A stretch of DNA of 64,000 nucleotides from Terriglobia bacterium (GTDB taxonomy: Bacteria; Acidobacteriota; Terriglobia; UBA7540), in the NCBI GenBank assembly GCA_020073545.1, contig JAIQEZ010000009.1:528-64527 (forward strand), in the 5' to 3' direction. The position numbers and the translations under genes were made by a program. Of this stretch, positions 42,799-60,239 are shown in pieces. The notes beneath the pieces were generated by a model that had not been told where the DNA came from, did no database searches, and saw only the letters and a program-made list of their open reading frames with translations. How positions within the stretch are numbered: the first letter of the stretch is position 1; each line of letters starts with the position of its first letter.

Positions 42799-43467
42799 AT
42801 GGGCGGACCAACCGAGAAGAGCGTTGCAGGGGTCAAAGTTCCTGGATCTGGTGAAAGGACGCTCGTCTACATTCCGATTATCCACACCCAAGCGGATATG
42901 GGAGCGCTGAGCGAGTCAATCCAGCGCCTGAAGCTCAAGAGGCTAGGTAGAAAGGGCTGGGAGCGCAACGTGAATCTGGTCGGCCAATTGTGGGGCCAGA
43001 TCGAACAAGCCATCGAGAGTCTGACCCTTCCCTACGAACGGGTTCGTCTTTATCAGGACGGACTGCCGGTTTGTGGTCGCGAGGTGGAGATTGTTACGGA
43101 GCTCGCAAAGGCGGGGAGCCGGAACCATCGGCTGCTTCTTCGCTTAAGGGAGAAGGGCGCCACGATCATGGGCACGGAATCCTCCCAGCTCCTGGTGGAG
43201 GAATATCAACTCGTCAAGGAGGTTTTCGCTTCCGCGAAGCCTGCGGTCGCCACCCGAGGAGGGGCGCGCCAGGCAGCCTTGCGGGATTCCTTGCTCAAAC
43301 GGCGTGATCAATATATTGCCCGCCGGATCAACGACACGCTTCTCCCGGGGGAAACAGGCCTGATCTTCCTGGGAATGCTTCATGCCGCGGGGCACTGGCT
43401 GGATGCGGACATCCGAGTCGTCCATCCGCTTCATCAACCCTTGGATCGTGGAGAGAGGAAACCGTGA
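42799..43467 (+). CDS. Hypothetical protein, first gene of gvp block 1
   Basis: 222-aa ORF. Its stop overlaps the GTG start of the sigma-54 activator (GTGA at 43464-43467). No motif was recognised. Confidence 0.6.
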   Translation: MGGPTEKSVAGVKVPGSGERTLVYIPIIHTQADMGALSESIQRLKLKRLGRKGWERNVNLVGQLWGQIEQAIESLTLPYERVRLYQDGLPVCGREVEIVTELAKAGSRNHRLLLRLREKGATIMGTESSQLLVEEYQLVKEVFASAKPAVATRGGARQAALRDSLLKRRDQYIARRINDTLLPGETGLIFLGMLHAAGHWLDADIRVVHPLHQPLDRGERKP

Positions 43468-44873
43468 AACCCCTGGGAAGCAAGATCCTCATTTCGGACG
43501 ATAAAACCGAGATTCGAGCCATCCTTTCCGAATACATGGAGCGTGAGGGACTAACCCCCGTGGTGGCGCAGACTGGGCAAGAGGCCATGGAGAGGATCCG
43601 CGCGGAACATCCCGACGTTCTAATCGCAGATTTGAAGCTGCCCGATATGGACGGGATGCAAATCATGAAAGGAGCGAAAGCCCTGGACGAGGACCTCCCG
43701 GTCATTCTGATTACGGGCTTCCCGGACATTCGGGGCGCCGTGGCGGCCATGCGGGCTGGCGCTCACGATTACCTGGCGAAACCTCTCAAACACCACGAGG
43801 TGCTGCGCGTAGTCTTACGCGCGCTGAACGAACGCGCGCTCAAGCGCAAGCTCCGGCGCCTGTCCTCCCAGATTCAGGATAAGTCTTCGCTCCGAGAGAC
43901 CATGGGGCCCAGCGATGCCGTGGGCCGGTTGATCTCCGATGTAGGCCGGGTAGCCAGAACCAACTTCAGCGTCTTGATTCTGGGGGAAACCGGCTCGGGG
44001 AAAGAGTTGGTGGCACACGCCATCCATCAGAGCAGCCTTCGCTGCGAGGCAGCTTTCATGGCAGTCGATTGCGGGGCCATCCCGGAAACGCTTTTGGAAA
44101 GCGAATTGTTTGGCCACGAAAAGGGGGCCTACACCGGAGCCGACCGACAGAAGATCGGCAAGATCGAAATGGCCCGTGACGGAACACTCTTCCTGGACGA
44201 AATCTCCAACATGCCTCTCGGTTCCCAGGCCAAACTCCTGCGCGTGCTGCAGGAGAAGACGATTTGCCGCATCGGCGGCGCGCAGCCCATCAGCGCGGAT
44301 GTCCGCGTTCTGGCGGCCAGCAACCAGGACTTGCATCGCTTGGGGGAATCGGGCTCATTTCGCCGTGACGTCTATTTTCGGTTGAACGAATTCACCATCT
44401 GGGTTCCGCCCTTGCGGGAACGCCAGGAGGACATTCTCTATCTGGCCAAGCGGTTCATGGATCTCACCAGTCTTGAGTTGCAGAAGAAGGTGAAGGGCAT
44501 GACGCAGCCGGCGGTGGACGCTCTGCTCGCCTATCCCTGGCCCGGCAATGTTCGGCAGCTCCGTTCCATGATCCGCCGGGCGGCGCTTTTGGCGGACGAT
44601 ATGATCACCGAGCAGCACCTGGGGATGGATTGGGTATCCCCCCAACCCGCAAGTCCGGGCCCGGGATGCAGCCAGGAAACTCAGGACACACCCCAGGGAG
44701 ACCTTTCCCTCAAAGAAATCAAGCATCGTAAGATCGTCGCCATGGAGCGGGAGATCTTGGCTCAAGTGTTGCGGGAAACGGGCGGGAATAAGGCGAAAGC
44801 CGCTCGCTTGCTTCACATCGATTATAAAACCATCTATTCAAAAATCAGGCAATACGGTATCTCGGTAGACTGA
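43464..44873 (+). CDS. Sigma-54-dependent response regulator (REC + AAA+ + Fis-type HTH; NtrC class)
   Basis: REC domain (ISDDK...VLIADLKLPDMDG...YLAKP), Walker A GETGSGKE, a GAYTGA variant of the GAFTGA loop, and C-terminal HTH GNKAKAARLLHIDYKTIYSKIRQYGI. Confidence 0.9.
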   Translation: MKPLGSKILISDDKTEIRAILSEYMEREGLTPVVAQTGQEAMERIRAEHPDVLIADLKLPDMDGMQIMKGAKALDEDLPVILITGFPDIRGAVAAMRAGAHDYLAKPLKHHEVLRVVLRALNERALKRKLRRLSSQIQDKSSLRETMGPSDAVGRLISDVGRVARTNFSVLILGETGSGKELVAHAIHQSSLRCEAAFMAVDCGAIPETLLESELFGHEKGAYTGADRQKIGKIEMARDGTLFLDEISNMPLGSQAKLLRVLQEKTICRIGGAQPISADVRVLAASNQDLHRLGESGSFRRDVYFRLNEFTIWVPPLRERQEDILYLAKRFMDLTSLELQKKVKGMTQPAVDALLAYPWPGNVRQLRSMIRRAALLADDMITEQHLGMDWVSPQPASPGPGCSQETQDTPQGDLSLKEIKHRKIVAMEREILAQVLRETGGNKAKAARLLHIDYKTIYSKIRQYGISVD

Positions 44874-44890
44874 AAGGAATAAGGTGCGTT

Positions 44891-45409
44891 ATGACGGAAA
44901 AGAGAAGAGACCAAACTTCACACGGCGGGATGGAAGGCGGCCTCGGGGGGATCCTCAAGGGCCTGGGAGACCTGGTGGAAAAGCTCGGCGAACTGGACGA
45001 AACCGGTCAAGAGCTTTCCAAAACGGGAGAAATTAACGGTCCCGGGAAACAGCTCCGAGGGATTTACGGATTCACCGTTAAGGTCGGGCTGGGCGATCAA
45101 GGGCCTCGCATCGAGCCCTTCGGAAATATTCGCCGAGACATCAAATCCGGGCGAACCGAGGTTCAGGAGGTCCGTGAACCCATGGTCGATATCTTTGAGG
45201 AAGACGACCACCTGCTGGTTTTGGCGGAGTTGCCCGGCATCGGCAAGGAGAACCTGCGGATTGACCTCAAGGACGATGTGCTGACGATTTCCGCCGAGAA
45301 AAGGGACAAGAAGTACCGCAAGGAGGTCCTCTTGCCCCGCAGCGTCTCCAAGGAAAAGATGCAGATCTCGTGTAACAACGGGGTCTTGGAAATTGAATGT
45401 CCTAAGTAA
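44891..45409 (+). CDS. Hsp20/alpha-crystallin family small heat shock protein (GvpH-like position)
   Basis: 172 aa. EPMVDIFEEDDHLLVLAELPGIGKENLRIDLKDDVLTISAEKRDKKYRKEVLLP...NNGVLEIE is an alpha-crystallin domain. Confidence 0.85.
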   Translation: MTEKRRDQTSHGGMEGGLGGILKGLGDLVEKLGELDETGQELSKTGEINGPGKQLRGIYGFTVKVGLGDQGPRIEPFGNIRRDIKSGRTEVQEVREPMVDIFEEDDHLLVLAELPGIGKENLRIDLKDDVLTISAEKRDKKYRKEVLLPRSVSKEKMQISCNNGVLEIECPK

Positions 45410-45426
45410 CTCCCTAGAAAGGCGCC

Positions 45427-47583
45427 ATGAGTGAAGCCGGAGAGAAGTCTCTCAAACTCAAAGTCAGCGAGGCCCTCAGCAAGGACGTGAGCCGGGCTTA
45501 CGCCCGCTTGGGGCCGGAGGACCTCGCGCGCTTGCAGATCGATGTCGGCGACATCGTGGAAGTGGTGGGCAAGGGCAGGACGGTCTGCAAAGCGATGCCG
45601 GCTTACAAGGAGTTGCGCGGTCAGTCCCGGATTCAACTGGACGGACTCACGCGCGAGAATGCCGGGACAGGGCTCGATGAATTCGTTCGAGTGCGCAAAA
45701 TTGCGTGCCCGCCCGCCGAACGCGTGGTGCTGGCCCCCACGAACGTTACTCCTTCCGAGCGCGATTTGGATTACATCGGCAGCCGCCTCGATGGCCTGCC
45801 TGTCCTAGCCGAGAACCGCATCCGGGCCATCCTCTTTGGCGCCCGCTGGGCGGATTTTAAGGTGGAAAGCACCGTGCCCAAGGGTCCAGCCCTCATTCAC
45901 CCGACGACACAACTCGTGATCTCCAAAGGGGCTCAATCCGAAGAGGTGTCCGCCCGTGCGATTTCCTACGAAGACATCGGCGGACTGAGGCCCCAACTCC
46001 AGCGCATCCGCGAAATGATTGAGCTCCCCTTGCGTTACCCCGAGGTCTTCGAACGCCTGGGGATTGATGCGCCAAAAGGTGTGCTTCTGCACGGACCTCC
46101 CGGATGCGGAAAGACGCTTATTGCCCGGGCGATTGCCCATGAGACCCAGGCGAACTTTTTTGCCGTCAGCGGGCCCGAAATCATCCATAAGTTTTACGGG
46201 GAGAGTGAAGCCCATTTGCGGAAGATCTTTGAAGAGGGCAGCCGCAAGGCCCCCAGCATCATCTTCCTGGATGAGATCGACGCCATTGCCCCGCGACGCG
46301 AGCAAGTCGTGGGCGAGGTCGAGAAGCGGGTAGTCGCCCAGCTCTTGGCGTTGATGGACGGGCTCGCCAAGCGCCGGAAGGTTATCGTCATTGCCGCGAC
46401 CAACCTGCCTAACATGCTCGATCCGGCTTTGCGGCGGCCGGGCCGGTTCGACCGCGAGATTGCCATCCCCATTCCTGACCGTAACGGACGGTTGCAGATC
46501 CTCGAGATTCACAGTCACGGCATGCCTCTCGCCGAAAAGGTGGACTTGAATCACTTGGCGGAGATCACGCACGGTTTTGTGGGGGCCGACCTCGAAGCTC
46601 TTTGCCGCGAAGCCGCGATGATCTGCCTGCGGCACATCATGCCTGACGTGGACTTTGGCTTGGCGCAGATTCCTTATGCGCAACTGGCCAAGCTCGAGGT
46701 GGGAATGGACGATTTCCTGGAGGCCCTGCGGGATATTGAGCCTTCGGCGCTGCGCGAAGTGTTTGTGGAGGTTCCCGACGTGCACTGGAACGACGTCGGG
46801 GGGCTGGCCGAGGTCAAACAGCGCCTCGTGGAAGCCGTCGAGTGGCCTCTCCAGCACCCGGAGCTGTTCACCCAGGCGGGGATCCGGCCACCCAAGGGAA
46901 TCCTGCTATCGGGCTCCCCAGGCTGCGGAAAAACTCTCCTCGCTAAAGCGGTTGCCAGCGAAACCAAGGTGAACTTCATCTCCGTCAAAGGGCCGGAATT
47001 GCTCTCCAAGTATGTGGGGGAATCGGAGAAAGGCGTGCGCGAGGTATTTCGCAAGGCGCGCCAAGCCGCTCCCTGCATCGTTTTTTTCGATGAGATTGAC
47101 GCCCTTGTGCCCAGCCGGAGCGCTGGATCGTCCGACTCGCACGTGGCTGAGCGTGTCCTGAGCCAGTTTCTCGCGGAATTGGACGGGGTGGAAGAGCTGA
47201 AAGGAGTCTTGGTTCTTGGCGCGACCAACCGTTCAGACCTGCTGGATCCCGCTGCTCTCAGGCCCGGCCGGTTTGACGAGATTGTGGAAATTCCGGCCCC
47301 CGACGAGGAGGGGCGCCGCGAGATTTTCGCTATCCATCTGCGAAACAAACCTCTCGGCCGGGGCATCAGCGTGAAGGAACTGGCCTCCCGAACTGACGGG
47401 TTCGGCGGCGCCGACATCAGTTCGGTTTGCACTCGCGCCGCTCGCCGCGCCGTCCGGCGAGCCGTTCAGGCGGGCGAAAAAGCACCCGCCGACAAGGTGC
47501 GGGTGATTATCGAGGTCAGCGACCTCGAGGCGACGCTGGAAGAGACTCGCCAGCAGACTCTCAAAGAGATTGGTGAACGGTAG
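45427..47583 (+). CDS. Cdc48/VAT-like double-ring AAA+ ATPase
   Basis: 718 aa. The CDC48_N-like N-domain (LKLKVSEA...DVGDIVEVVGKGRTVCKAMP...IQLDGLTRENAG) is followed by two AAA modules with GPPGCGKT and GSPGCGKT Walker A motifs. Confidence 0.9.
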   Translation: MSEAGEKSLKLKVSEALSKDVSRAYARLGPEDLARLQIDVGDIVEVVGKGRTVCKAMPAYKELRGQSRIQLDGLTRENAGTGLDEFVRVRKIACPPAERVVLAPTNVTPSERDLDYIGSRLDGLPVLAENRIRAILFGARWADFKVESTVPKGPALIHPTTQLVISKGAQSEEVSARAISYEDIGGLRPQLQRIREMIELPLRYPEVFERLGIDAPKGVLLHGPPGCGKTLIARAIAHETQANFFAVSGPEIIHKFYGESEAHLRKIFEEGSRKAPSIIFLDEIDAIAPRREQVVGEVEKRVVAQLLALMDGLAKRRKVIVIAATNLPNMLDPALRRPGRFDREIAIPIPDRNGRLQILEIHSHGMPLAEKVDLNHLAEITHGFVGADLEALCREAAMICLRHIMPDVDFGLAQIPYAQLAKLEVGMDDFLEALRDIEPSALREVFVEVPDVHWNDVGGLAEVKQRLVEAVEWPLQHPELFTQAGIRPPKGILLSGSPGCGKTLLAKAVASETKVNFISVKGPELLSKYVGESEKGVREVFRKARQAAPCIVFFDEIDALVPSRSAGSSDSHVAERVLSQFLAELDGVEELKGVLVLGATNRSDLLDPAALRPGRFDEIVEIPAPDEEGRREIFAIHLRNKPLGRGISVKELASRTDGFGGADISSVCTRAARRAVRRAVQAGEKAPADKVRVIIEVSDLEATLEETRQQTLKEIGER

Positions 47584-48402
47584 ATGAAGAAGATTGAGGG
47601 GGCGCTCTATCTTTTTTGCTTTGCCCGCGCGGACCTCGTCGGCGAGCTCGAGGGGACGGGTGTGGATGGCCACCATCCCCTTTTCGTCCTACGAGGCTCG
47701 CCGGATCTAGGTGCGGTCGTCAGCGAGGTGCGCCTGGAAGATTTCTGCGGCCCGGTGGCGGAACTTCGAATGCAAGACCTGGCTTGGGTAGGGCCACGCG
47801 CCTTCCGCCACGAGGCCGTAGTCGAGCAGGTGATGCGTCATTCTCCCGTGCTGCCTGCCCGCTTCGGAACCCTTTTCTCATCGCAGGAAAGCTTGGCGGA
47901 ATTTCTTGCTACACATCGCAAGACCATTTCGCAGTTTCTCGAGCGGGTGGCCGACCAAGAAGAATGGTCAATCAAGGGGCTGCTCGACAGAAAGCAAGCC
48001 CTGCAGGCCCTCATGTCCGGAAGCTTGGCCGCGCAACAGGTGCAGCTTGCCGCGCTGCCTCCGGGAACCCGTTACTTTCAAGAACAGCGCATCCGATCGG
48101 CTGCGGAGAAGGAACTGAGCCGCTGGCTAAACGAAACCTGCCGGCAAGTCGCGAGCGACATGAGGAAGCAGGCTTCGGATTTCCGCGAATGCCAAGTTGT
48201 ACCTCGCGAGCCCCCAGAGAGCGGAACCGAGGTTGTGCTGAATTGGGCCTTTCTACTCCCGAGGAGTGCGACCACGGCATTTCGCTTGCGAATCGATCGG
48301 GTGAACGAAACCCATGCCACCCCGGGGCTGGTTTTCGAACTCTCCGGGCCCTGGCCCCCATATCGCTTCGTTCCTCCCCTATCGATGGGAACGGCCCCAT
48401 GA
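47584..48402 (+). CDS. GvpL/GvpF-family gas vesicle protein (copy 1)
   Basis: The N-terminus YLFCFARADL...GAVVSEVRLEDF...HEAVVEQVMRHSPVLPARFGTLF and the C-terminus LSGPWPPYRF are GvpF/L hallmarks. The ATG directly follows the Cdc48 stop. Confidence 0.85.
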   Translation: MKKIEGALYLFCFARADLVGELEGTGVDGHHPLFVLRGSPDLGAVVSEVRLEDFCGPVAELRMQDLAWVGPRAFRHEAVVEQVMRHSPVLPARFGTLFSSQESLAEFLATHRKTISQFLERVADQEEWSIKGLLDRKQALQALMSGSLAAQQVQLAALPPGTRYFQEQRIRSAAEKELSRWLNETCRQVASDMRKQASDFRECQVVPREPPESGTEVVLNWAFLLPRSATTAFRLRIDRVNETHATPGLVFELSGPWPPYRFVPPLSMGTAP

Positions 48403-49172
48403 GTTGCCTGCTTTACTGCATCTTCCGCAGCCCGGCACAGCCAAGACCCGGAATACCTCCCGGCGTCGGAGGGAAACCGGCATTCGTGGTGACGCGGAAT
48501 GGTTTGAGCGCAGGGCTTTCCGAGCTTGCGGAATCGGACCGGGTTCCTGATATCCCACAAATCCTCGCCTACGAAAGGGTGGTTGAATTCTTCTGTCGCG
48601 ACCTCACCATAATCCCCGTGCGGTATGGATGTCAGCTTGAAGACGCACGCGGGGCCCTCCGGTTGCTGGAAAGACACCGCGAGGAATACAGCGCGCTTCT
48701 CGACGAACTCGAGGGCCTAGGGGAGATGGGCATCCATCTTCTCCTCGACGGTTCCCGAGATGCAACGGAGAACGATGCACTGCCTGTCGCTCCCCAATCC
48801 TTTCCCCTTCCCTGTAGTTCCGGTGCTGCCTACCTTGCAGCAAAGCGACAACGTTATTTGGGTCTGGACCGGTTAGCCCTGCACGAGCGCTTGTTGGTGG
48901 ACGAGGTTTGCGGCTCCCTGTCCGGCCTCTTCGTCCGGCACAAGGTGGAATTTCCCGACTCGACCAGGAACCAACTGCTCTCCCTTTATTTCCTCGTGCC
49001 CCGCGGTTATGTCGAATCCTTTCGCCAAGCCGCTCGCAACCTCCGCTCGAAGGAGCCCGTCAAGCTGCTCTTGAGTGGCCCCTGGCCACCCTACAACTTC
49101 GTTCATTCCCTCGAAACGGCGATCCTGCCGCCACACGCTAGCCCCGAAAACAGCCTGCCCCTCAAAGGGTGA
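48399..49172 (+). CDS. GvpL/GvpF-family gas vesicle protein (copy 2)
   Basis: The ATG at 48399 overlaps the upstream stop (ATGA). MSCLLYCIFRS...ILAYERVVEFFCRDLTIIPVRYGC...LLSGPWPPYNF. The N-terminal half of the 518-aa track ORF is out-of-frame overlap. Confidence 0.8.
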   Translation: MSCLLYCIFRSPAQPRPGIPPGVGGKPAFVVTRNGLSAGLSELAESDRVPDIPQILAYERVVEFFCRDLTIIPVRYGCQLEDARGALRLLERHREEYSALLDELEGLGEMGIHLLLDGSRDATENDALPVAPQSFPLPCSSGAAYLAAKRQRYLGLDRLALHERLLVDEVCGSLSGLFVRHKVEFPDSTRNQLLSLYFLVPRGYVESFRQAARNLRSKEPVKLLLSGPWPPYNFVHSLETAILPPHASPENSLPLKG

Positions 49173-49358
49173 CCACTGGGGACTACCTACCCCGCAACTA
49201 GCGCCTGCATTGTATGGAGTGAATTCCTCAATGACCTGTTCCAGGTGCAACAATTCTCCCCGCGATGGCGCCTTTCTCTTTCGAATCAAGCTTTTCGGGA
49301 GGGAAGTATGCACTTTACGCAAGGGGTCGGCTTTCTAGCTAGCATGGCGCACCACCGA

Positions 49359-49550
49359 TTACTTCGGCCATCCCTCGGGCGGTTTCTTCTTCGCCAGCGA
49401 CTTCTTTATTGCCTGCTTCCAGTTGCCCTTAACCTTGAGGAGTTCCGGCTTTGGGCCTGGAGCGGCCTTATCCTGGCGCATGGTATTTTTGCTTTTCTTT
49501 CTCCGGTTATTTATGGGCTTAGGAAACATAGTACTTTTGTACCTTGACAA
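49359..49550 (-). CDS. Possible small basic hypothetical protein
   Basis: A 63-aa Lys/Arg-rich ORF in the lower-GC insertion. No motif was recognised. Confidence 0.25.
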   Translation of the reverse strand: MSRYKSTMFPKPINNRRKKSKNTMRQDKAAPGPKPELLKVKGNWKQAIKKSLAKKKPPEGWPK

Positions 49551-49710
49551 GCCCCTTGCGTCCCTTGTACTCTAAAGACGCTTCCAAGGCTTGTGCGTCC
49601 GATGTTCCGCTAATCGGGCTTCGGCCACAACACAAAATGTATGCCTCTCCAATAAAATGAAGAGGTTTACGTAATAAAGGGGGCCAATCCAATGAGCCCC
49701 CATTTTTATT

Positions 49711-50232
49711 TCACGCCTGTTTTCTCTCAATTCGAGCACGGATCGTTTCCAAGTCCAAAAACTTATTCGCAACGTTGATTAGGTCGTTAGAGATCGATCC
49801 CTTTCGACCAACAATGGTGACGACCTTTCCGATTGCGCGCAAGTGGCCAATGACCGGAATATAGTCGCTATCGCAGCCCATCAAGACAATTTCATCGTAA
49901 GTGTTGGCCTCGGTAAGCAACCTGAAAACCAACTCGATGTCCAGGTTCCCCTTGATCCTCAGGGGAACATCCGATGTCTCACTTTTGATGACTCTGACTT
50001 CCTTGTCCACAACGCTATAACCGATGCTCTGTAAGGCTGTCTTGAAATGACGATATTTTGTAACTCTCTCTGAGTCGCCAACCGGCGGCGTTGCAGTGAA
50101 ATAGTAAGCTGCGGCCTTTTCCTTGTTATCCGTAAAAAAGTTAAAGACCAAGCGCCAGTCAATATGCCAGTGATTGTCTCGCTGGGCATAGAACATGTTG
50201 GCTCCATCTACAAACAGTCCTACTCTTTGCAT
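49711..50232 (-). CDS. NYN (LabA-like/DUF88) domain protein, putative RNase
   Basis: MQRVGLFVDGANMFYA...DIELVFRLL...IVLMGCDSDYIPVIGHLRAIGKVVTIVG is the NYN pattern. The start is set at ATG 50232, which is preceded by ggagga. The upstream part of the track ORF is antisense to a tRNA. Confidence 0.8.
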   Translation of the reverse strand: MQRVGLFVDGANMFYAQRDNHWHIDWRLVFNFFTDNKEKAAAYYFTATPPVGDSERVTKYRHFKTALQSIGYSVVDKEVRVIKSETSDVPLRIKGNLDIELVFRLLTEANTYDEIVLMGCDSDYIPVIGHLRAIGKVVTIVGRKGSISNDLINVANKFLDLETIRARIERKQA

Positions 50233-50315
50233 TTTGTTCCTCCAAGGCGGCGGGACTTCCAAGGCCCGTACCTCATGGGGTATTATATCAGAGTCAGCCA
50301 TTAGAGTCCTCCTGT

Positions 50316-50399: not shown

Positions 50400-50400
50400 C

Positions 50401-52437: not shown

Positions 52438-52528
52438 AAAATCCCACCAACAGTCCAAATTAGGACACTACGTCCTTGCGTAAAGTGCATACTTCCGTTT
52501 CGGGAAACCCACCGATACTGAACTCGCG

Positions 52529-52629: not shown

Positions 52630-52848
52630 ATGGCAAAGGTCGCAAAGTCGACTGACTCCTCAAGCCTGGCGGAAGTAGTTGATCGGATTCTCGACAAGGG
52701 AATCGTGATCGACGCCTGGGCCAAGGTGTCGCTGGTCGGGATCGAGCTGTTATCCGTCGAAGCCCGCGTGGTGATCGCTTCGGTCGAGACCTACCTGAAG
52801 TACGCCGAAGCTATTGGTCTGACAGCGAATGCTGCGGCTCCTGCTTAA
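52630..52848 (+). CDS. gvpA: Gas vesicle structural protein GvpA
   Basis: 72 aa. [55 protein letters not shown] is the canonical GvpA core. The RBS ggaaggag lies 7 nt upstream of the ATG. Confidence 0.95.
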
Positions 52849-52955: not shown

Positions 52956-53246
52956 ATGGGTAGATTGTTGGAAGACATGACTCGACTGAGCGAGGAAATC
53001 CAAGCGCTGCGCGGAAGCCGTCGGGCGTTCCGAAAAGAACTCGCGGACGGCAACAAGGATCGCCAGATGGATGTCTTTGAAATGTGTGTCGACCTTGCAG
53101 ACACACAAGCTCGAATGGCAAAGAGGGCGAAAGCGGAGCGTCTTGCTTTCTTGAACAACCTGAAGCGAAACGTCGGCGGGCAGCAACGGGAAATGAGGGC
53201 TGATATTGCTGGCGCGCGCCGTGCCTGGGCGGGCGGGGGCGCGTAG
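52956..53246 (+). CDS. Coiled-coil protein, gvp-associated (paralog 1)
   Basis: 96 aa with a strong RBS (agggagggg). The N-terminus MGRLLEDMTRLSEEIQALRGSR is shared with the next gene. Confidence 0.7.
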   Translation: MGRLLEDMTRLSEEIQALRGSRRAFRKELADGNKDRQMDVFEMCVDLADTQARMAKRAKAERLAFLNNLKRNVGGQQREMRADIAGARRAWAGGGA

Positions 53247-53384: not shown

Positions 53385-53792
53385 ATGGGGATGCTAACCG
53401 AAGACATGACTCGATTGCGGGACGAAATCCTGGCGCTACGAAGCTCGCGCCAGGGACTGATCCATGATCTGGCGCGCGAGACCGAGAAGCGACGGGCTGA
53501 CGTGTCAAGTATGCTCGCCAACACTTCCGAAGCCCTCAGTGCCGTCGCCAAGGCGACGAAAGCCGATCGTTTGGGTTCCATCGCGGACCTCAAAAGCGCC
53601 GTCGCCGACATTCTGAGTGGCGTTAGCACGGATCTGTGCGGCATTCGACAAGTCTGGCTGGCCTCGGGCACTCCAGCGCGCTGGGCTGGGGGGGAATGCG
53701 GAAAACAGACAAGGCAGGTAGCCGCGGCCGACTCGAAAGGAAGCCGGAGTGTGACAGGTCGCAAGCCCGCGCCGGTACGCAAGAAGCGATAG
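53385..53792 (+). CDS. Coiled-coil protein, gvp-associated (paralog 2) with basic C-terminal tail
   Basis: 135 aa with RBS aaggag. MGMLTEDMTRLRDEILALRSSR... is collinear with 52956..53246 over about 90 aa. Confidence 0.7.
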   Translation: MGMLTEDMTRLRDEILALRSSRQGLIHDLARETEKRRADVSSMLANTSEALSAVAKATKADRLGSIADLKSAVADILSGVSTDLCGIRQVWLASGTPARWAGGECGKQTRQVAAADSKGSRSVTGRKPAPVRKKR

Positions 53793-53867
53793 CATTAAGT
53801 CTCCAACAGCCGGGATGCGGGTTAAGCTCCGACGAGCTCGAGATGCTTGGAGAGAGGGAAAAACACG

Positions 53868-54884
53868 ATGAATGGTGACGAGGCGAAGGATGTCCTGGTG
53901 GCCAGCGAAGTAGTCGAACCCCAAGGACACAGTATTGTGCTTGAGCCCAGCGATGAGTTCGTCTTGACCCCGCAGATCAAGGCGCTGGCAGACAGGGCGC
54001 TGAGCTACCTGGATGTCGGATACGCGGTCCACTTCGCAGGGCCGGCAGGCACGGGAAAGACGACCCTCGCCCTGCACGTGGCTGCGCAGATCGGTCGGCC
54101 GGTTGTCCTCATCCATGGCGACGACGAATTTGGCAGTTCCAACCTGATTGGCAAGAATTCCGGCTTCCGCACGTCCAAGCTCATTGATAATTATATTCAC
54201 TCCGTGGTGAAGACCGAAGAAAGCTTGAGCACGCTTTGGGAGGACCATCAGCTCACCACCGCCTGCCTCGACGGACACACCCTCATTTACGATGAGTTCA
54301 ACCGTTCCCGGCCCGAAGCCAACAATGTGCTCCTCAGCATCCTGGAAAAGAGGATTCTCAATCTGCCTAGCCTGCGCCGGTCCGGTGAGGGGTACGTACA
54401 TGTACACGAGAACTTTCGGGCCATCCTGACGTCGAACCCTGAGGAATATGCCGGCGTCCACAAGACGCAGGACGCGCTGGTGGACAGGATGATTACCATC
54501 GACCTCGGACATTTCGATCGCGAAACGGAGATTCAAATCACCAAGGCGAAGTCAGGCATTCCCACCGAGGATGCCGAAAGGATCGTGGACATTGTCAGGG
54601 AGCTCCGCGGGGTGGGTGTGAACAACCACCGCCCCACGATTCGGGCCTGCATCGCCATCGCCAAGATCCTTTCCCGCCGCAATGGGCGCGCCCAGATAGG
54701 GGATCCCACCTTTTGGTGGGTATGCTGCGACGTTCTCAAAACGGACACGGCCAAGGTTACTCATGATGGCCAGTCACTTATGTTGGGGAAGGTGGAAGAG
54801 GCGATCAGGAGAATCTGCGGGAACCATGGGAACGGCAACCATGCGAAGCGCCGAAAGAATCACCACCGGGGCGCTACGGCCTGA
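53868..54884 (+). CDS. gvpN: Gas vesicle AAA+ ATPase GvpN
   Basis: YAVHFAGPAGTGKTTLALHVAAQIGRPVVLIHGD...LIYDEFNRSRPEANNVLLSILEKRIL is the GvpN/CbbQ-type pattern. The start could be 53847 or 53868. Confidence 0.9.
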   Translation: MNGDEAKDVLVASEVVEPQGHSIVLEPSDEFVLTPQIKALADRALSYLDVGYAVHFAGPAGTGKTTLALHVAAQIGRPVVLIHGDDEFGSSNLIGKNSGFRTSKLIDNYIHSVVKTEESLSTLWEDHQLTTACLDGHTLIYDEFNRSRPEANNVLLSILEKRILNLPSLRRSGEGYVHVHENFRAILTSNPEEYAGVHKTQDALVDRMITIDLGHFDRETEIQITKAKSGIPTEDAERIVDIVRELRGVGVNNHRPTIRACIAIAKILSRRNGRAQIGDPTFWWVCCDVLKTDTAKVTHDGQSLMLGKVEEAIRRICGNHGNGNHAKRRKNHHRGATA

Positions 54885-54898
54885 AAAGGAGCGCAAGT

Positions 54899-55204
54899 AT
54901 GCCTATACCGTTAAGGGGTCTAAGGACCATTCGTACGTTGGCTGGTCGAGTGGACCGCCTCTTTGTCCCCCACAGAGCGCACATGCGAGTCGCATGCCTG
55001 GAAATCGAAAAGGCTCGGCGCGCCACCGAAAGAATAACCGCGAGCCGGCGGGTGGCAGAGCTTGATGCCCGTCTCCACGAGATCGAGGCCGAAGAGGCGG
55101 CCCTCTTGCAGGGTCTGGCCGGACGCAAACGGGTTGGTCTGCCTGGGGCTGGGACAAGGCCCACACCGCGGGGGAGTGCCGGTGCGTTTAGGATCAGGTA
55201 CTAA
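54899..55204 (+). CDS. Small hypothetical protein in gvp block 2
   Basis: 101 aa. The RBS aaggag lies 8 nt upstream. Central helix ACLEIEKARRATERITASRRVAELDARLHEIEAEEAALL. Confidence 0.6.
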   Translation: MPIPLRGLRTIRTLAGRVDRLFVPHRAHMRVACLEIEKARRATERITASRRVAELDARLHEIEAEEAALLQGLAGRKRVGLPGAGTRPTPRGSAGAFRIRY

Positions 55205-55281: not shown

Positions 55282-55629
55282 ATGATTCTGGAAACCGAAA
55301 AGGAGCTCCGGCAGGTCGTGCAGATTGCCGTCGCCACGGCACTGGCTTGTTGGGGCTTTCCTTTGCTGGCGCTCTTGCTAGTTCTTCTAATCTTGCCGTG
55401 GCAGCCGATCTATCGGATGGCCGCGTATCTCGGGGGTGTGGTCCTGGAAGTCAAAGCGCAAAGGACGGTCAAGCGGGCGATGAAGAAGCTGCACGAGGAA
55501 CCCGCGCACGTCACCCAGCCCAGCCCGGGGGCGGGGGGGGCCGAGCGGGGTTCTCCCGCACATCGTCGTCCTGGGAACTCGGAGGAGAGGATATGCGAAT
55601 CAACTGTTTGGGCTGCGGGTACAAATTAG
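55282..55629 (+). CDS. Small membrane protein in gvp block 2
   Basis: 115 aa with RBS gaggag and a hydrophobic segment VVQIAVATALACWGFPLLALLLVLLILPW. Its 3' end overlaps the next small ORF, so the true stop and extent are uncertain. Confidence 0.45.
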   Translation: MILETEKELRQVVQIAVATALACWGFPLLALLLVLLILPWQPIYRMAAYLGGVVLEVKAQRTVKRAMKKLHEEPAHVTQPSPGAGGAERGSPAHRRPGNSEERICESTVWAAGTN

Positions 55630-55712
55630 ACCTGGACGAGGCTTACGACGACTATGATGGCCCGGTGAAATGCTTCGCATGCGAGGCAATTCTTGAGATC
55701 CGCACGGAATAG
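55593..55712 (+). CDS. 39-aa zinc-ribbon protein in gvp block 2
   Basis: MRINCLGCGYKLDLDEAYDDYDGPVKCFACEAILEIRTE contains two CxxC pairs. A strong RBS (ggaggagagg) precedes the ATG. The TAG stop is followed by 44 in-frame sense codons. Confidence 0.6.
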   Translation: MRINCLGCGYKLDLDEAYDDYDGPVKCFACEAILEIRTE

Positions 55713-55913: not shown

Positions 55914-56171
55914 TTGGGTGGAGAAAAGCCTGAGGAGGCAGCAAATCGCCGGAATCGACAAAGACCCGAGCTGATGGAGCGCGACCATGCTCGAGCCTCC
56001 CAGACCTTGCTCACCCGTATCTTGGACCTCCACATCTCGGGCCGCACAGCGGACGAAATCGCCGCGCAGCCTCTTACCACCGAGCCCGAGGACGCCATGT
56101 TCCGTGCCGCGATGCTGGTGGAGATGATCCTTCACTACGCCCGCCGCTGTCCGGGGGAGACAAACCAGTGA
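55914..56171 (+). CDS. Small protein with possible helix-turn-helix (LuxR/sigma region-4-like) segment
   Basis: 85 aa from TTG 55914, or 65 aa from ATG 55974. Contains LLTRILDLHISGRTADEIAAQ. The stop overlaps the GTG start of the next gene (GTGA). Confidence 0.45.
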   Translation: MGGEKPEEAANRRNRQRPELMERDHARASQTLLTRILDLHISGRTADEIAAQPLTTEPEDAMFRAAMLVEMILHYARRCPGETNQ

Positions 56172-56971
56172 GTATGGGCCAAACAACGACCGCGAAAGCG
56201 CCTGAGAAGCAACCGCCGAGTCAACCTGCAGCCAGGGGCAGGACGTACCTTTACGCGGTCATAGGCGACGCGCAGGGCCGGACGTACGGTGACTTCGGCG
56301 TCGATGGGCGAAAGGTATATTCCATCCCTGCTGGGAAAGTGGCGGCTGTCGTCAGCGACGTGCCCAGCGGAACGCTCCGCCCGGAACGCTCCCGTCTCGC
56401 CGCCCATCAGGAAGTCCTCAAAAAACTCATGGCGGAGGCCACGCCGCTGCCCATGTCCTTCGGGATCCTTGCGGACAGCCCGCAGGCCGTTCGAAACATG
56501 CTTTCTCGCAACCAGCATGCCCTCCGCGAGCAACTCCGTCGCGTGGCGGGCAAAGTGGAGATGGGTTTGCGAGTCACTTGGGACGTGCCCAACATCTTCG
56601 AGTATTTCGTGAATACCCATCCGGAACTGAGGCTCGCCCGGGACCGATTACTGGGAGGCCAACGCGAGCCCACGCAGGAGCAGAAGATCGAAGTCGGAAG
56701 GCTGTTCGAGCGTCTTCTCAACGAGGATCGGGAAGCCTACGCCGACAAAGTGGAAGCAATCCTAGCGCCCCACTGCTTTGAGATCGAGCCGAACAAATGC
56801 CGCAACGAAGGCGAGGCGCTGAATCTGGCCTGTCTCGTCGAGCGTGCGGCGATGCCACAATTCGAAAGCAGCGTCTTCGAGGCCGCGAAGCAGTTTGATA
56901 ACAACTTTGCCTTCGACTATAACGGACCGTGGGCGCCCCACAACTTTGTCGAGGTCGACCTCGAGCTTTAA
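56168..56971 (+). CDS. GvpL/GvpF-family gas vesicle protein (copy 3)
   Basis: YLYAVIGDAQ...VYSIPAGKVAAVVSDVP...LAAHQEVLKKLMAEATPLPMSFG...YNGPWAPHNF. Confidence 0.85.
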   Translation: MSMGQTTTAKAPEKQPPSQPAARGRTYLYAVIGDAQGRTYGDFGVDGRKVYSIPAGKVAAVVSDVPSGTLRPERSRLAAHQEVLKKLMAEATPLPMSFGILADSPQAVRNMLSRNQHALREQLRRVAGKVEMGLRVTWDVPNIFEYFVNTHPELRLARDRLLGGQREPTQEQKIEVGRLFERLLNEDREAYADKVEAILAPHCFEIEPNKCRNEGEALNLACLVERAAMPQFESSVFEAAKQFDNNFAFDYNGPWAPHNFVEVDLEL

Positions 56972-56994: not shown

Positions 56995-57291
56995 ATGGTG
57001 CTCGTGGATGACGTCTTGATGTTTCCCATCCGCAGTGTGCTCTGGATCTTCCGTGAGATTCACAACGCCGCCCAGGAGGAGCTTGCCAACGAGAGTGAAT
57101 CCATTACCGCGGAGCTGAGTGGTCTTTACATGATGCTGGAAACCGGAAAGATCTCGGAGGAAGAGTTCGCCGCGGAAGAAAAGACCTTACTCGACCGGTT
57201 GGACAGAATCCAAAAGCCTGACAGGGGCCTCGAACGGGAGGATGGCAGAGAGCAAAAGCAGGACCAACGTGAAGAGAGAAGCGTCGCGTGA
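56995..57291 (+). CDS. gvpG: Gas vesicle protein GvpG
   Basis: MVLVDDVLMFPIRSVLWIFREIHNAAQEEL...LSGLYMMLETGKISEEEFAAEEKTLLDRL is the GvpG pattern. RBS gggagga. Confidence 0.85.
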   Translation: MVLVDDVLMFPIRSVLWIFREIHNAAQEELANESESITAELSGLYMMLETGKISEEEFAAEEKTLLDRLDRIQKPDRGLEREDGREQKQDQREERSVA

Positions 57292-57316
57292 GGGGCGCAT
57301 TAGATGCGCAGAGAGC

Positions 57317-59263
57317 ATGGCAGCTCCACCGTTTTTGGACAACCGAGGCTTACAACTGCTTGTCTTTGGAGGCAAAGGCGGAGTCGGAAAGACGACGTGC
57401 GCTACCGCAACGGCGCTGAAATTGGCCAGACGCTCACCCAAATCATCTTTTCTCCTGGTTTCCACGGACCCCGCGCACTCCCTCACGGATAGCCTGGCGG
57501 GCTCGCTTCCACCCGACAATTTGAAGGTATTCGAACTGGATGCGCAGGAATACCTCGCCACCTTCAAGAAGAGCCATCACGCCAAACTCCGGGAAATCGC
57601 CTCGCGTGGAACCTTCCTCGATGACGACGAAATTAGCCGCTTCCTGGATCTCTCCTTGCCGGGCTTGGATGAACTCATGGGCTTTCTGGAGATCTCCGCC
57701 TGGGTGGAAAATCGGAGCTACGATTGCATTATCCTGGACACCGCCCCCAGTGGTCACACGCTACGCTTGCTTGCCATGCCGGAATTCCTCCGCAAATGGC
57801 TGGACATGCTGGAAACGCTGCTGGCGAAGCACCGCTACATGAAGTGGGCCTTCACCCGCTCCAACCATCGCGACGAGCTCGACACCTTCCTCGAGGGGTT
57901 AGCGGCATCGGTGAAACGGATGGAAGAATTACTCCAGGATCCGGTTCGTTGCCGGTTTGTCCCGGTCATGCTCGCCGAGGCGATGAGCATCCGCGAGACC
58001 ATGGCAATCGTGAAGGAACTGGATCGTCTCAAGCTTCCAAGGACCGACGTCGTGATCAACGGGCTCTATCCGGATAACGCCTGCGCGATTTGTCGGGACG
58101 GGCGCCCCCGCCAGATTCGGGAACTGCAGAGTCTTTTCCGTCAAACCCATCTGTCCAAGTTGGCATTCTGGGCTGTCCCGTTTTACGCCGAGGAGGTCCG
58201 CGGGCGGGAAGCTCTCGAATCGTTCTGGGATCAGGTGGAGCAAATCAGCGCAGCGCCACGCGCGGGGCGCGGACCGTCGGTGGCTCCGCCGCTAAGCGTG
58301 GAGGCAGCCGCACCGTGGCCTCCCCCTGAGACTACCCTTCTGATCTTTGCGGGCAAGGGTGGTGTGGGAAAGACAACCCTGGCCTGCGCCACAGCACTGC
58401 AACTGGCGCACACCGGTTCAGGGAAGAATGTCCTTCTGTTCTCGACGGGACCTGCTCACTCGTTGTCAGGGTGTCTCGAGACGCAGATCGACTCCCGGCC
58501 GAAGGTCGTGAGCTCCGGCCTCACGGCCCTGGACATTGATTCGGAGGCGGAATTGGAGGCTTTGAAAAAACAGTACGCGGGGGACATTGAGAAATTCCTG
58601 CACTCGCTGGCGAGCAACTTTGATCTGACTTTCGACCGCGAGGTGCTCGAGAGGATTCTGGATCTCTCCCCTCCCGGCCTGGACGAGGTGATGGCCCTGA
58701 CGCGCGTCATGGCCCTACTCGCCTCAGGCAGCTACGACGTTCTGGTCCTCGACTCAGCATCGACGGGTCACCTGGTTCGGCTGCTGGAGCTCCCGGAAAT
58801 CATTGACCAGTGGCTGAAGCTCTTTTTCGAACTCTTCCTGAAATACCAACAGGTCTTTCGCCTGACGAAGTTTTCTCAGGAATTGGTGACGATGTCGAAA
58901 AATCTCAAAAGACTCAGAGAACTGTTGAGCGATCCGGCTAGGGCCGCTCTGTATGCCGTTAGCATTCCGACAGATATGGCCTTTGAGGAAACACGGGATT
59001 TGGTGGCCGCCTGCGAGCGCTTAGGCATCCGGGTGCCCGGGATGTTTCTCAACCTCGTCACGCCGCGCAGTGATTGCGACTTGTGTTCCGCCCTGTACCG
59101 CCGGGAGTCTCGAGTGCGCCAGAAGTTTCAACAGAGCCTTTCGGGTAGGGACGTCACAGTGGTTTATCGTCGCGGAGACATGCGAGGCCTTTGCCGGCTG
59201 GGAGAACTGGGGAAGGCCCCTTACCAAAGCAGCCGCGTGGAATCGAGAGCCTATGTCTGTTGA
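57317..59263 (+). CDS. Tandem-duplicated ArsA/Get3 (TRC40)-family ATPase
   Basis: It has two homologous halves. Each carries a deviant Walker A (FGGKGGVGKTT and FAGKGGVGKTT), an STDPAHSL/STGPAHSL motif, and a DTAP-type switch (ILDTAPSGHTLRLL and VLDSASTGHLVRLL). The start is set at ATG 57317. Confidence 0.85.
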   Translation: MAAPPFLDNRGLQLLVFGGKGGVGKTTCATATALKLARRSPKSSFLLVSTDPAHSLTDSLAGSLPPDNLKVFELDAQEYLATFKKSHHAKLREIASRGTFLDDDEISRFLDLSLPGLDELMGFLEISAWVENRSYDCIILDTAPSGHTLRLLAMPEFLRKWLDMLETLLAKHRYMKWAFTRSNHRDELDTFLEGLAASVKRMEELLQDPVRCRFVPVMLAEAMSIRETMAIVKELDRLKLPRTDVVINGLYPDNACAICRDGRPRQIRELQSLFRQTHLSKLAFWAVPFYAEEVRGREALESFWDQVEQISAAPRAGRGPSVAPPLSVEAAAPWPPPETTLLIFAGKGGVGKTTLACATALQLAHTGSGKNVLLFSTGPAHSLSGCLETQIDSRPKVVSSGLTALDIDSEAELEALKKQYAGDIEKFLHSLASNFDLTFDREVLERILDLSPPGLDEVMALTRVMALLASGSYDVLVLDSASTGHLVRLLELPEIIDQWLKLFFELFLKYQQVFRLTKFSQELVTMSKNLKRLRELLSDPARAALYAVSIPTDMAFEETRDLVAACERLGIRVPGMFLNLVTPRSDCDLCSALYRRESRVRQKFQQSLSGRDVTVVYRRGDMRGLCRLGELGKAPYQSSRVESRAYVC

Positions 59264-59540
59264 AACCAGCACCGGAAACCGGCCACCCGTGGTTTCCGAA
59301 CTCGCGCTCGATGACGCCAAGCGGGTCTCTTTGTGTGAGGTGCTCGACCGGGTGCTGAACAAGGGGGTTGTGGTGGCCGGGGATGTGACGATCTCGGTCG
59401 CTGATGTCGACCTCATTTACCTCGGACTGCAACTCGTGCTCACATCCATGGAGAAGGCGCGCCAAGGCTTTCGCCGAGCGCCGGTACAATTGGACGCAGA
59501 CCTGGGCATCGAGAAGGAGCTGGCCAGTGGATTCCGCTGA
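59253..59540 (+). CDS. GvpA/J/M-family gas vesicle protein (GvpM/S-like)
   Basis: 95 aa. SLCEVLDRVLNKGVVVAGDVTISVADVDLIYLGLQLVLTSMEKA. The start overlaps the ArsA-like gene by 11 nt. Confidence 0.85.
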   Translation: MSVETSTGNRPPVVSELALDDAKRVSLCEVLDRVLNKGVVVAGDVTISVADVDLIYLGLQLVLTSMEKARQGFRRAPVQLDADLGIEKELASGFR

Positions 59541-59904
59541 GCTGCCGTGGGTCGAGTCTGAAGCCCTCAGTGACTTCGCTCGGGTGATGAAAGTAGGCCC
59601 GTTACCTCGGTCTCAACCGTCTAAAGGTCGGCAGGGGCGGAACGCCCGCCTGAACCTCGATGAGAATGATATAAAGAACGGCCTCGGACAACTGGTGCTG
59701 ACTCTGGTCAAGCTCTTGCACGAATTGCTGGAGCGCCAGGCCATCCACCGCATCGAGGGCGGCGACTTGAGTGACCAGCAGATTGAAAGGCTCGGAATGA
59801 CGCTGATGAGGCAAACCCAGGAAATCACCCGGCTCCGAAAGGAATTCGGCCTGGAAGAAGAAGATCTTAACCTGGATCTCGGCCCGCTGGGCAAGCTTTT
59901 GTAA
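59527..59904 (+). CDS. gvpK: Gas vesicle protein GvpK
   Basis: LGQLVLTLVKLLHELLERQAIHRIEGGDLSDQQIERLGMTLMRQTQEITRLRKEFGLEEEDLNLDLGPLGKLL. The GTG start at 59527 overlaps the upstream stop and is tentative. Confidence 0.85.
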   Translation: MDSAELPWVESEALSDFARVMKVGPLPRSQPSKGRQGRNARLNLDENDIKNGLGQLVLTLVKLLHELLERQAIHRIEGGDLSDQQIERLGMTLMRQTQEITRLRKEFGLEEEDLNLDLGPLGKLL

Positions 59905-59915
59905 AAGGAGATGTC

Positions 59916-60239
59916 ATGGCGCAGCAACGCAGCCTGTCACACGCGGTGCAAAGTTCAACTTTGGCGGACGTGTTGGAGCGGGTTTTAGACAAAGGGGTCG
60001 TCATCGCTTGCGATATCCGAGTGAAGCTGGTCGATATCGAACTCCTGTCCATCCAGATCCGCCTGGTCATCTGCTCGGTCGACAAAGCCAAGGAAATGGG
60101 GATGGATTGGTGGGTGAACAACCCGATCTTTCGCCGGGAAGAGGACCGTGAAACGCTGGCAACCTCTCTCGCCAGCATCGAGGAAAGGATGGCAAGGCTG
60201 GAGGCCTCTCTCCCGAAAGAGGAAGTGCGTGCTGGCTAA
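59916..60239 (+). CDS. gvpJ: GvpA/J-family gas vesicle protein (GvpJ-like)
   Basis: TLADVLERVLDKGVVIACDIRVKLVDIELLSIQIRLVICSVDKAKEMGMDWW. Confidence 0.85.
   Translation: MAQQRSLSHAVQSSTLADVLERVLDKGVVIACDIRVKLVDIELLSIQIRLVICSVDKAKEMGMDWWVNNPIFRREEDRETLATSLASIEERMARLEASLPKEEVRAG

Follow-up and report, generated by a model that had tools for sequence, protein, structure and literature searches.

A 64,000-nucleotide stretch of DNA from a Terriglobia bacterium (Acidobacteriota) of peat soil (contig JAIQEZ010000009.1, positions 528 to 64,527, assembly GCA_020073545.1; hereafter the window) carries a gas vesicle (gvp) gene cluster between its positions 42,799 and 60,239. A previous sequence-only reading had assigned the DNA to an Acidobacteriota-like genome, which the Terriglobia host bears out, and had described two blocks of gvp genes with a non-canonical accessory set, possibly a distinct lineage of gas vesicle assembly. 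Genes were called by listing and translating open reading frames (ORFs), followed by Pfam and NCBIfam profile scans of the ORFs. The resulting features of the cluster are given below, together with the positions they correspond to in the locus of Serratia sp. ATCC 39006.

42799..43467, + strand, 222-amino-acid accessory protein, distant TraB/PrgY/GumN-like alpha/beta protein; first gene of the left operon
43464..44873, + strand, NtrC-type sigma-54-dependent response regulator (receiver, AAA+ and Fis helix-turn-helix domains); Serratia gvrA position
44891..45409, + strand, Hsp20/GvpH-like small heat-shock protein (HSP20, 3.6e-9)
45427..47583, + strand, CDC48-family double-ring AAA+ ATPase (N domain, D1, D2); Serratia gvpZ position
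47584..48402, + strand, GvpF/L paralogue 1 (PF06386, 2.8e-53); Serratia gvpF2 position
48399..49172, + strand, GvpF/L paralogue 2 (PF06386, 2.8e-38); Serratia gvpF3 position
52529..52544, + strand, predicted sigma-54 -24/-12 promoter element of the gvpA operon, TGGCAT-N6-TGCT (TGGCATcagtccTGCT)
52630..52848, + strand, gvpA, major shell protein, 72 amino acids (PF00741, NF006874)
52956..53246, + strand, GvpC-like helical protein 1, 96 amino acids, between gvpA and gvpN
53385..53792, + strand, GvpC-like helical protein 2, 135 amino acids with a basic tail, same family
53847..54884, + strand, gvpN, AAA+ ATPase (TIGR02640)
54899..55204, + strand, GvpV-like 101-amino-acid protein, directly after gvpN
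55282..55629, + strand, small membrane protein, confined to close Terriglobia relatives
55593..55712, + strand, zinc-ribbon gene, nonsense-truncated (intact frame to 55847)
55974..56171, + strand, 65-amino-acid lineage-specific small protein (codon-phase signal 55960-56140)
56168..56971, + strand, GvpF/L paralogue 3 (PF06386, 3e-66); Serratia gvpF1 position
56995..57291, + strand, gvpG (PF05120, 1.7e-16)
57242..59263, + strand, tandem (pseudo-dimeric) Get3/ArsA-fold ATPase (TIGR00345)
59253..59540, + strand, GvpA-family minor protein (GvpJ/M/S-like; PF00741, 6.8e-18); Serratia gvpA2 position
59404..59904, + strand, gvpK (PF05121, 2.7e-31, ORF residues 82-166); likely start ATG 59587
59916..60239, + strand, GvpA-family minor protein (GvpJ-like; PF00741, 3.8e-16); Serratia gvpA3 position, last cluster gene

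Profile hidden Markov models (HMMs) upheld the whole core set named in the sequence-only reading, that is gvpA, two GvpA/J/M-type genes, gvpK, gvpG, gvpN and three GvpF/L genes. The gvpA product matched PF00741 (2e-16) and NF006874 (133 bits, cut-off 100) and is about 84% identical to the Anabaena GvpA of solved structure (PDB 8GBS, E 1e-30), GvpN scored 333 bits against the TIGR02640 cut-off of 267, and the three GvpL/GvpF genes matched PF06386 with E values from 3e-38 to 3e-66. Two more PF00741 proteins are present besides GvpA, one of which (59253..59540) matches the GvpM and GvpJ models below threshold, and gvpG and gvpK were likewise identified by HMM. The tight packing with overlapping start and stop codons was seen at five junctions (43464/43467, 47583/47584, 48399/48402, 56168/56171 and 59253/59263). 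Neither GvpO nor Gas_vesicle_C was matched in Pfam by any scanned ORF, in agreement with the claimed lack of a GvpO-like gene. The sigma-54 regulator, the Hsp20/GvpH gene, the 101-amino-acid gene after gvpN and the conserved sigma-54 promoter before gvpA had all escaped the previous reading.

Comparing the cluster with that of Serratia sp. ATCC 39006, whose locus reads gvpA1CNVF1GWA2KXA3Y / gvrA gvpH Z F2 F3 gvrB gvrC (PMC9501494; PMC4982088), revealed that the window is colinear with the two Serratia operons at the level of predicted genes. The left block runs 222-amino-acid gene, regulator, Hsp20, Cdc48, F and F, and the right block runs A, two helical genes, N, the 101-amino-acid gene, small genes, F, G, the ArsA-like gene, A-like, K and A-like. 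Both loci hold three GvpA-family and three GvpF-family genes as well as a sigma-54 promoter before gvpA with an NtrC-family regulator, and by position the regulator matches gvrA, Hsp20 matches gvpH, the Cdc48-like gene matches gvpZ and the helical genes match gvpC, while the Get3/ArsA-like ATPase occupies the place of gvpW. The window differs in having two short GvpC-like genes instead of one gvpC, in lacking a recognised counterpart of gvpX and gvpY, and in its additional genes: the 222-amino-acid TraB-like gene, the zinc-ribbon gene and two lineage-specific small genes.

The ends of the Serratia proteins were deduced from primers used for gene deletion and cloning (PMC4982088, Table S3). The gvpV primers give an AISTRP start and an LRIKY-stop end, and one copy of the 101-amino-acid family ends exactly in LRIKY. 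The gvpC primers give the start MGCLTDGMA, compared with MGxLT(E/D)DMTRL in the helical family and MGCLTDDMTRL at locus L058, and the gvpZ primers give an MSEE start and an internal VRWEDVG, compared with an MSEAGE start and VHWNDVGG in the D2 ring of the window protein. These primer-derived matches are short, yet consistent with position in all three cases (GvpV, GvpC and GvpZ).

The same architecture is widespread. A scan with one genome per species yielded 270 GvpN relatives, the best 80 loci were retrieved and searched with every window protein, and 47 of these 80 span the cluster from the Cdc48-like gene to the last gvpJ; the following counts refer to these 47 loci. Gene order was identical to that of the window, as one block, in 47/47, and the loci come from at least eight phyla. 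The Cdc48-like ATPase and the 101-amino-acid GvpV-like gene after gvpN were present in 47/47 loci each, the regulator, Hsp20 and a GvpC-like helical protein in 46/47 each, the zinc ribbon in 39/47, the 222-amino-acid protein in 35/47 and the Get3/ArsA-like ATPase in 33/47, down to the 65-amino-acid protein (9/47) and the small membrane protein (6/47). Going by record names, the acidobacterial hosts are Terriglobia, Bryobacterales and Solibacter; other hosts belong to Desulfomonilaceae, Syntrophaceae, Syntrophobacteraceae, Desulfobaccales, Verrucomicrobiota, Planctomycetota, Gemmatimonas, Methylomirabilia and Poribacteria. The main sources of these genomes are peat, bog, fen and groundwater. 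At the representative non-acidobacterial locus L058, a PAS histidine kinase and a receiver gene lie between gvpF and gvpA, and about 20 other loci, mostly non-acidobacterial, have a similar gvpF-gvpA gap of 2.2-3.0 kb. The plasmid gvp clusters of Spartinivicinus and Octadecabacter were without Cdc48 and sigma-54 regulator, and the supplements of Hurt 2023 held no gene annotation for the 23.5-kb cluster of Desulfobacterium vacuolatum DSM 3385 (FWXY01000008:1268-24724), a cluster that yields vesicles in Escherichia coli. Several single metagenome-assembled genomes (MAGs) carry two whole-cluster copies on different contigs (L015 and L026, L013 and L052, L059 and L074, L046 and L056), which recalls the two vac regions of Halobacterium. 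Together, these comparisons argue that the Terriglobia stretch holds a gas vesicle cluster of the widespread Serratia/Desulfobacterota type, a reading to which we assign a probability of roughly 0.85. The window thus does not reveal a new system, and the part worth following is its several conserved partner genes.

The gap between the two blocks is not native spacer. In alignments with L002, the closest public relative (a MAG of Terriglobia with a 96% identical GvpN), and with L004, 49301-52497 stood out as extra DNA, which was resolved into the following features.

49301..52497, no strand, IS1595-family insertion of 3,197 bp, not part of the gvp system, splitting the cluster
49711 to about 50300, - strand, NYN protein within the insertion
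50316-50400, + strand, tRNA-like gene within the insertion (Rfam, 53.6 bits)
50401-51360, - strand, transposase (DDE_Tnp_IS1595)
51607-52437, + strand, 276-amino-acid membrane/coiled-coil passenger ORF within the insertion

Perfect 23-bp terminal inverted repeats (49302-49324 and 52474-52496), an 8-bp target duplication, TTTCGGGA, on both flanks (49293-49300 and 52498-52505) and a transposase matching DDE_Tnp_IS1595 and Zn_ribbon_IS1595 in Pfam identify the insertion sequence (IS) as a member of the IS1595 family, and G+C drops to 0.53 within it. The site is empty in L002, L004 and the conspecific L083 (ENA ERZ25039515, contig_29869, from another metagenome), a contig 98-99% identical to the window in which the cluster is uninterrupted, TTTCGGGA is single-copy and 253 bp separate gvpF from gvpA. 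Because L083 carries the empty site, the two blocks are one cluster that was split by a recent, strain-specific transposition, and the two-block layout of the sequence-only reading falls away.

Among the passengers of the IS, the tRNA-like gene lies between the NYN-domain gene and the transposase; it is 85 nt long with a long variable arm and 77% identical to the tRNA-Leu(TAA) gene of L004, and its anticodon loop CTTGGAA gives the anticodon UGG (Pro), so that a Leu-type body is joined to a Pro anticodon. An Rfam scan over 40000-64000 matched no family apart from one tRNA. The 276-amino-acid ORF, which had no Pfam match, combines a hydrophobic segment at its N terminus with an Ala/Glu/Arg-rich stretch, coiled-coil-like by eye, and a C-terminal domain. 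An ORF at 51501-52490 on the - strand is low-complexity, runs antisense to this plausible gene and is probably spurious.

The insertion lies next to the gvpA promoter. The putative sigma-54 box is located about 85 nt before the gvpA start codon, its GG-N10-GC is kept in 11/11 aligned close relatives, and the strict motif occurs at the same offset in 23 of the 81 regions upstream of gvpA, where shuffling predicts about 2. The regulator carries Sigma54_activat (9e-65), Response_reg (1e-24) and HTH_8 (1e-10) domains in Pfam, and its translation contains the GAYTGA motif. The window is thereby predicted to combine an NtrC-family activator with a sigma-54 promoter upstream of gvpA. The IS ends 32 nt upstream of the -24 GG; on its other side it directly follows a conserved AATCAAG block, with a longer conserved block further upstream. 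Some 250 bp of conserved DNA are thus separated from the gvpA core promoter; any upstream activator sites would therefore be shifted 3.2 kb away, and this placement suggests that activation of the gvpA operon may be impaired. With the promoter parted from its upstream DNA by the IS and the zinc-ribbon gene cut short, the cluster in this strain is probably deregulated or decaying, while the conspecific strain keeps an intact copy.

A further possible rearrangement lies 54 bp away from the IS site, likewise between gvpF and gvpA. Up to 49246, the contig L001 (sample ERZ27247997) matches the window at 99.9% identity, and it then continues into an unrelated gene (L001:4792-4954), a P-loop (GPPGVGKS) ATPase fragment by eye from its translation. 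This junction is possibly a third allele or an assembly chimera.

Transposable elements next to gvpA have precedents. Halobacterium Vac- mutants include IS-mediated inactivation of gvp clusters. IS-mediated gvp inactivation is also on record for Microcystis, as cited in PMC2963123 (Mlouka 2004). Both cases share with the window a transposable element in or next to gvpA regulatory DNA and the coexistence of an intact allele; the window element differs in belonging to the IS1595 family with passenger genes and in that its expression effect is judged from its position.

The two coiled-coil genes between gvpA and gvpN had been listed by the sequence-only reading as accessory genes alongside the statement that no GvpC-type repeat protein was present. 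They are paralogues (38% identical, E 1e-18), and the family shares an N-terminal cap and a C-terminal cap (...DLAGARRAWxG). The predicted structure of helical protein 1 is a single unbroken helix over residues 2-93, with a predicted local distance difference test score (pLDDT) of 95. Homologues in Desulfobacterota and Verrucomicrobiota have 150-330 residues with internal repeats, and the top self-similarity offset among 30 long members was 33 residues in 15/30 and 40 in 7/30. Repeats of 33 residues are the hallmark of GvpC, an outer helical protein with repeats of 32-40 residues. The family thus shows 33-residue periodicity in the gvpC position, which speaks against the earlier statement, and by period and position the window proteins would represent minimal, GvpC-like versions. 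A PDB sequence search with a long homologue gave chance matches only.

In some loci the helical genes have a further neighbour. At Bryobacterales/Solibacter-type loci (L013, L014, L019, L020, L022, L025, L038 and others), the zinc-ribbon gene is placed between two GvpC-like genes or right after a single one, and not after the GvpV-like gene. A C-terminal zinc-finger motif has been reported for haloarchaeal GvpC (PMC9501494), and by analogy the zinc ribbon might be a functional partner that has become detached from the GvpC-like proteins.

The accessory genes of the left block fall into broad families. The Cdc48-like double AAA+ ATPase claimed by the sequence-only reading scored 886 bits against a TIGR01243 cut-off of 803, contains CDC48_N, CDC48_2 and two AAA domains with lid domains, and has Walker A and B motifs in both rings of its translation; by these sequence features it is a member of the CDC48/p97/VAT family. 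Literature searches found no paper that treats a Cdc48-type ATPase as a gvp gene or says what GvpZ is. The Hsp20 gene exceeds the cut-off of the GvpH model (1.1e-6, 29.3 bits, cut-off 22) and weakly matches ArsA_HSP20 (3.3e-5), an HSP20-like domain fused to some ArsA proteins. For the 222-amino-acid protein, 3120 homologues were found, the named ones all being "hypothetical". Its match to PF01963 is sub-threshold (E 0.0033, 17.8 bits, cut-off 26.8), as are those of 23/30 members of its family (best E 1.6e-4). Its AlphaFold2 model (pLDDT 79) gave no significant match in PDB sequence-profile or Foldseek searches, the best relevant Foldseek match being ChaN 2g5g (template modelling score 0.34, E 0.28). 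After gvpF2, a length difference of about 240 bp relative to L002, L004 and L007 was considered as a lesion and set aside as natural variation, the short form occurring in other relatives.

The tandem ArsA/Get3-like ATPase was likewise confirmed, with 381 bits against a TIGR00345 cut-off of 135. In contrast, it reached only 168 bits against the cut-off of 650 of the ArsA equivalog TIGR04291, and the window cluster contains no ars genes. By its profile scores the protein is thus a member only of the broader GET3/ArsA/TRC40 subfamily and not the arsenite-pump ArsA. It has two P-loops, and its N half has a canonical P-loop, DPAH and DTAPSGH. In the C half (region 58350-58450), switch I reads STGPAHS, not STDPAHS (Asp to Gly); this Gly is shared by the window and about six close relatives, whereas the first half is canonical everywhere. 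This pattern suggests an asymmetric pseudo-dimer with one catalytic site.

A link between such ATPases and gas vesicles has been published. Castillo and Saier 2010 described two-domain ArsA homologues of about 640 amino acids inside gvpN/F/L/G/J/K/M clusters of four phyla (Polaribacter irgensii, Pelodictyon luteolum, Geobacter uraniireducens, Anabaena/Nostoc and an acidobacterium), and 3/5 described cluster types (Polaribacter, Pelodictyon and Geobacter) also contained Hsp20. Homologues of ars genes were missing from the four SEED gvp operons belonging to their ArsA cluster 4, gas vesicle operons were without arsR, and the ArsA homologue was proposed to energise a biogenesis step (PMC2963123). 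A Cdc48-type ATPase, a sigma-54 regulator, a GvpC-like family, a GvpV-like gene, the 222-amino-acid gene and the zinc ribbon are not reported for those operons.

A cultured isolate carries a related set. On plasmid p1 of Methylocella tundrae T4 (NZ_CP139088), gvpA is 86%, gvpN 55% and a GvpV-like protein 44% identical to the window proteins, accompanied by a sigma-54 regulator, GvpF, GvpG, GvpJ/K and Hsp20. A homologue of the 222-amino-acid protein (38%) lies there between Hsp20 and a "CDC48 family AAA ATPase" (RefSeq name; 55% identical), and these three genes stand at the end of the cluster, compared with the start in the window. Unlike the window, the Methylocella cluster has a gvrB/C-like histidine kinase and receiver; no ArsA-like gene, zinc ribbon or GvpC-like match was detected in it. 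The cluster of Anabaena flos-aquae (gvpA-C-N-J-K-F-G-V-W) shares with the window the succession of gvpA, an outer helical protein and gvpN, and differs from it in lacking the sigma-54 regulator and the Hsp20/Cdc48 module.

Between gvpN and gvpF1 lie the smaller genes. Members of the 101-amino-acid family start with MAI(P/S)xR (MAIPxxGL...) and end in GF(K/R)(I/L/V)(R/K)Y-stop in 76/78 copies, and a homologue search returned only "hypothetical protein" names. A codon-phase test with eight relatives supported coding for the N-terminal part of the small membrane protein (third-codon-position substitution excess over about 55285-55460), for the zinc ribbon, which gave a strong signal, and for the 65-amino-acid gene. 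An ORF at 55693-55974 was rejected as a gene, with no codon-phase bias and many indels among relatives. The 65-amino-acid protein had been called HTH-like, a label without support; it has no Pfam match. The zinc ribbon had been described as a 39-amino-acid protein, which proved to be a truncation. The family has about 60-84 amino acids with two CxxC pairs and the consensus MKINCLSCGHKVDLDDAYDDYEGQVKCFACGAILEI..., homology extends past the in-frame stop, and codon 40 is TAG in the window (55710-55712) and CAG in L083, where the product has 84 amino acids. The TAG may mark a genuine pseudogene, be a sequencing error or be read through.

The Serratia, Anabaena and Halobacterium literature allows a working model of the cluster. 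An NtrC-type, GvrA-like regulator would activate the sigma-54 promoter of the gvpA operon, and GvpA would then build the ribbed shell, nucleated by the three GvpF/L proteins, GvpG, GvpK and the two GvpJ-like proteins. GvpN and the GvpV-like protein would drive growth from bicone to cylinder, and the two long-helix GvpC-like proteins would bind and stiffen the shell exterior. In a more speculative step, Hsp20 (GvpH), the TraB-like protein, the Cdc48-type unfoldase and the Get3-like ATPase may form a proteostasis module that holds, delivers or recycles the very hydrophobic GvpA-family subunits. That Hsp20, TraB-like and Cdc48 (GvpZ) proteins with the tandem Get3-like ATPase make up a dedicated ATP-driven chaperone, delivery and recycling pathway, with the GvpC-like proteins as a minimal stiffening cage, is a tentative possibility that we consider doubtful. 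If true, it would resemble the GET pathway with the gas-water interface replacing the lipid bilayer as target, and would explain how the shell is fed without subunit aggregation.

Several observations weigh against a functional gas vesicle cluster of the Serratia type. Literature searches turned up no gas vesicles seen in any acidobacterium, and to our knowledge none are known. Neither the window nor the Acidobacteriota loci have the gvrB/gvrC kinase and receiver that are required in Serratia. The equation of the Cdc48-like ATPase with GvpZ, which probably holds, and that of the 101-amino-acid protein with GvpV draw on position and a few primer-deduced residues, not on full sequences. The helical family is without detectable similarity to cyanobacterial GvpC (in Pfam, in NCBIfam, and with long homologues searched to E 10), and the window copies of 96 and 135 amino acids hold only about one recognisable repeat, compared with five repeats in Anabaena GvpC. 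Finally, native Serratia can dispense with gvpH and gvpZ, as it can with W, X and Y. For the other genes, Serratia genetics assign functions: A1, A2, A3, F1-3, G and K are needed, together with gvrA and gvrB; mutants in N and V arrest at small bicones; and loss of gvpC lowers collapse pressure more than threefold (PMC9501494 Table 1; PMC4982088). On the supporting side, deletion of gvpH or gvpZ in Escherichia coli reduced or abolished the gas vesicle signal (PMC10344784). The 3' homology arm of the in-frame gvpZ deletion in Serratia runs from VRWEDVG to the stop codon (PMC4982088 Table S3), and if VRWEDVG opens the D2 ring there as in the window protein, a complete AAA module may survive in the "dispensable" allele.

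The Serratia dispensability of gvpH and gvpZ would also fit the view that the ArsA-like, Cdc48-like, Hsp20 and 222-amino-acid genes are mere neighbours with a general proteostasis or arsenic function, all four belonging to broad housekeeping-type superfamilies. Yet they lie inside operons with overlapping stop and start codons, are kept in 33-47 of the 47 loci across many phyla, and include the presumed counterparts of gvpH and gvpZ, two genes whose deletion impairs the vesicle signal in E. coli (PMC10344784); moreover, the ATPase fails the ArsA equivalog by a wide margin, and ars genes are missing both from the window cluster and from the four SEED operons of PMC2963123, so that this view is hardly credible. 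The suggestion of the sequence-only reading, a distinct and so far unrecognised assembly lineage whose accessory set would replace GvpC and GvpO and imply another assembly mechanism, could point to the missing Pfam matches to GvpC and GvpO, to several conserved genes without family assignment and to the lack of a paper on a Cdc48-type ATPase as a gvp gene. It is nonetheless very unlikely and already largely refuted: GvpA is about 84% identical to its cyanobacterial counterpart, the gene order is colinear with the characterised Serratia cluster and recurs in many phyla, the helical proteins belong to a family with 33-residue repeats in the gvpC position, the ArsA-Hsp20-gvp link dates from 2010 (PMC2963123), and the architecture is common in public genomes and partly annotated in a RefSeq isolate. 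What remains of the non-canonical accessory set are several unstudied genes, while its Cdc48-like and coiled-coil members probably correspond to Serratia gvpZ and gvpC.

More weight attaches to the idea that the cluster is cryptic, serves a purpose other than buoyancy (stress or desiccation response, cell-volume control) or is a decaying remnant in this strain. The IS beside the gvpA promoter, the nonsense codon in a conserved gene, the possible third, likewise rearranged allele between gvpF and gvpA and the origin of the hosts from peat, bog, fen and groundwater, not open water, all speak for it, and cryptic gvp clusters are known, for example, from Streptomyces (PMC4982088). Against this, an intact allele exists in a 98-99% identical contig, and the fact that all of the roughly 18 genes have been kept in order in many phyla points to selection acting on the entire machinery; waterlogged peat pores are water-filled with steep redox gradients, where buoyancy could matter. 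We therefore regard it as unlikely and favour a gas vesicle cluster of the Serratia/Desulfobacterota type.

One architecture (sigma-54 regulator, Hsp20, Cdc48-type ATPase, TraB-like protein, GvpV-like protein, GvpC-like proteins, zinc ribbon and often a Get3-like ATPase) thus recurs in at least eight phyla, among many uncultured bacteria of peat, wetlands and groundwater. Several of its conserved partner genes have never been studied. Serratia gvpV and gvpZ, whose function is unassigned, and gvpC would at the same time be tied to broad sequence families. The assembly of very hydrophobic subunits into a 2-nm protein shell around gas is still an unsolved problem, and helper genes decide the success of heterologous expression, which is relevant to acoustic reporter genes. 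At this locus, intact and IS-disrupted natural alleles coexist in closely related strains.

At the right border, homology with relatives stops at about 60222-60306, and a 756-amino-acid ORF downstream of the cluster (61632-63902, - strand) had no Pfam match at E 0.01 or better. On the left, the 1.9 kb or so upstream of the cluster (40931-42798) holds no convincing ORF and is patchily conserved, at 41983-42179 with L002 and from 42557 with L004.

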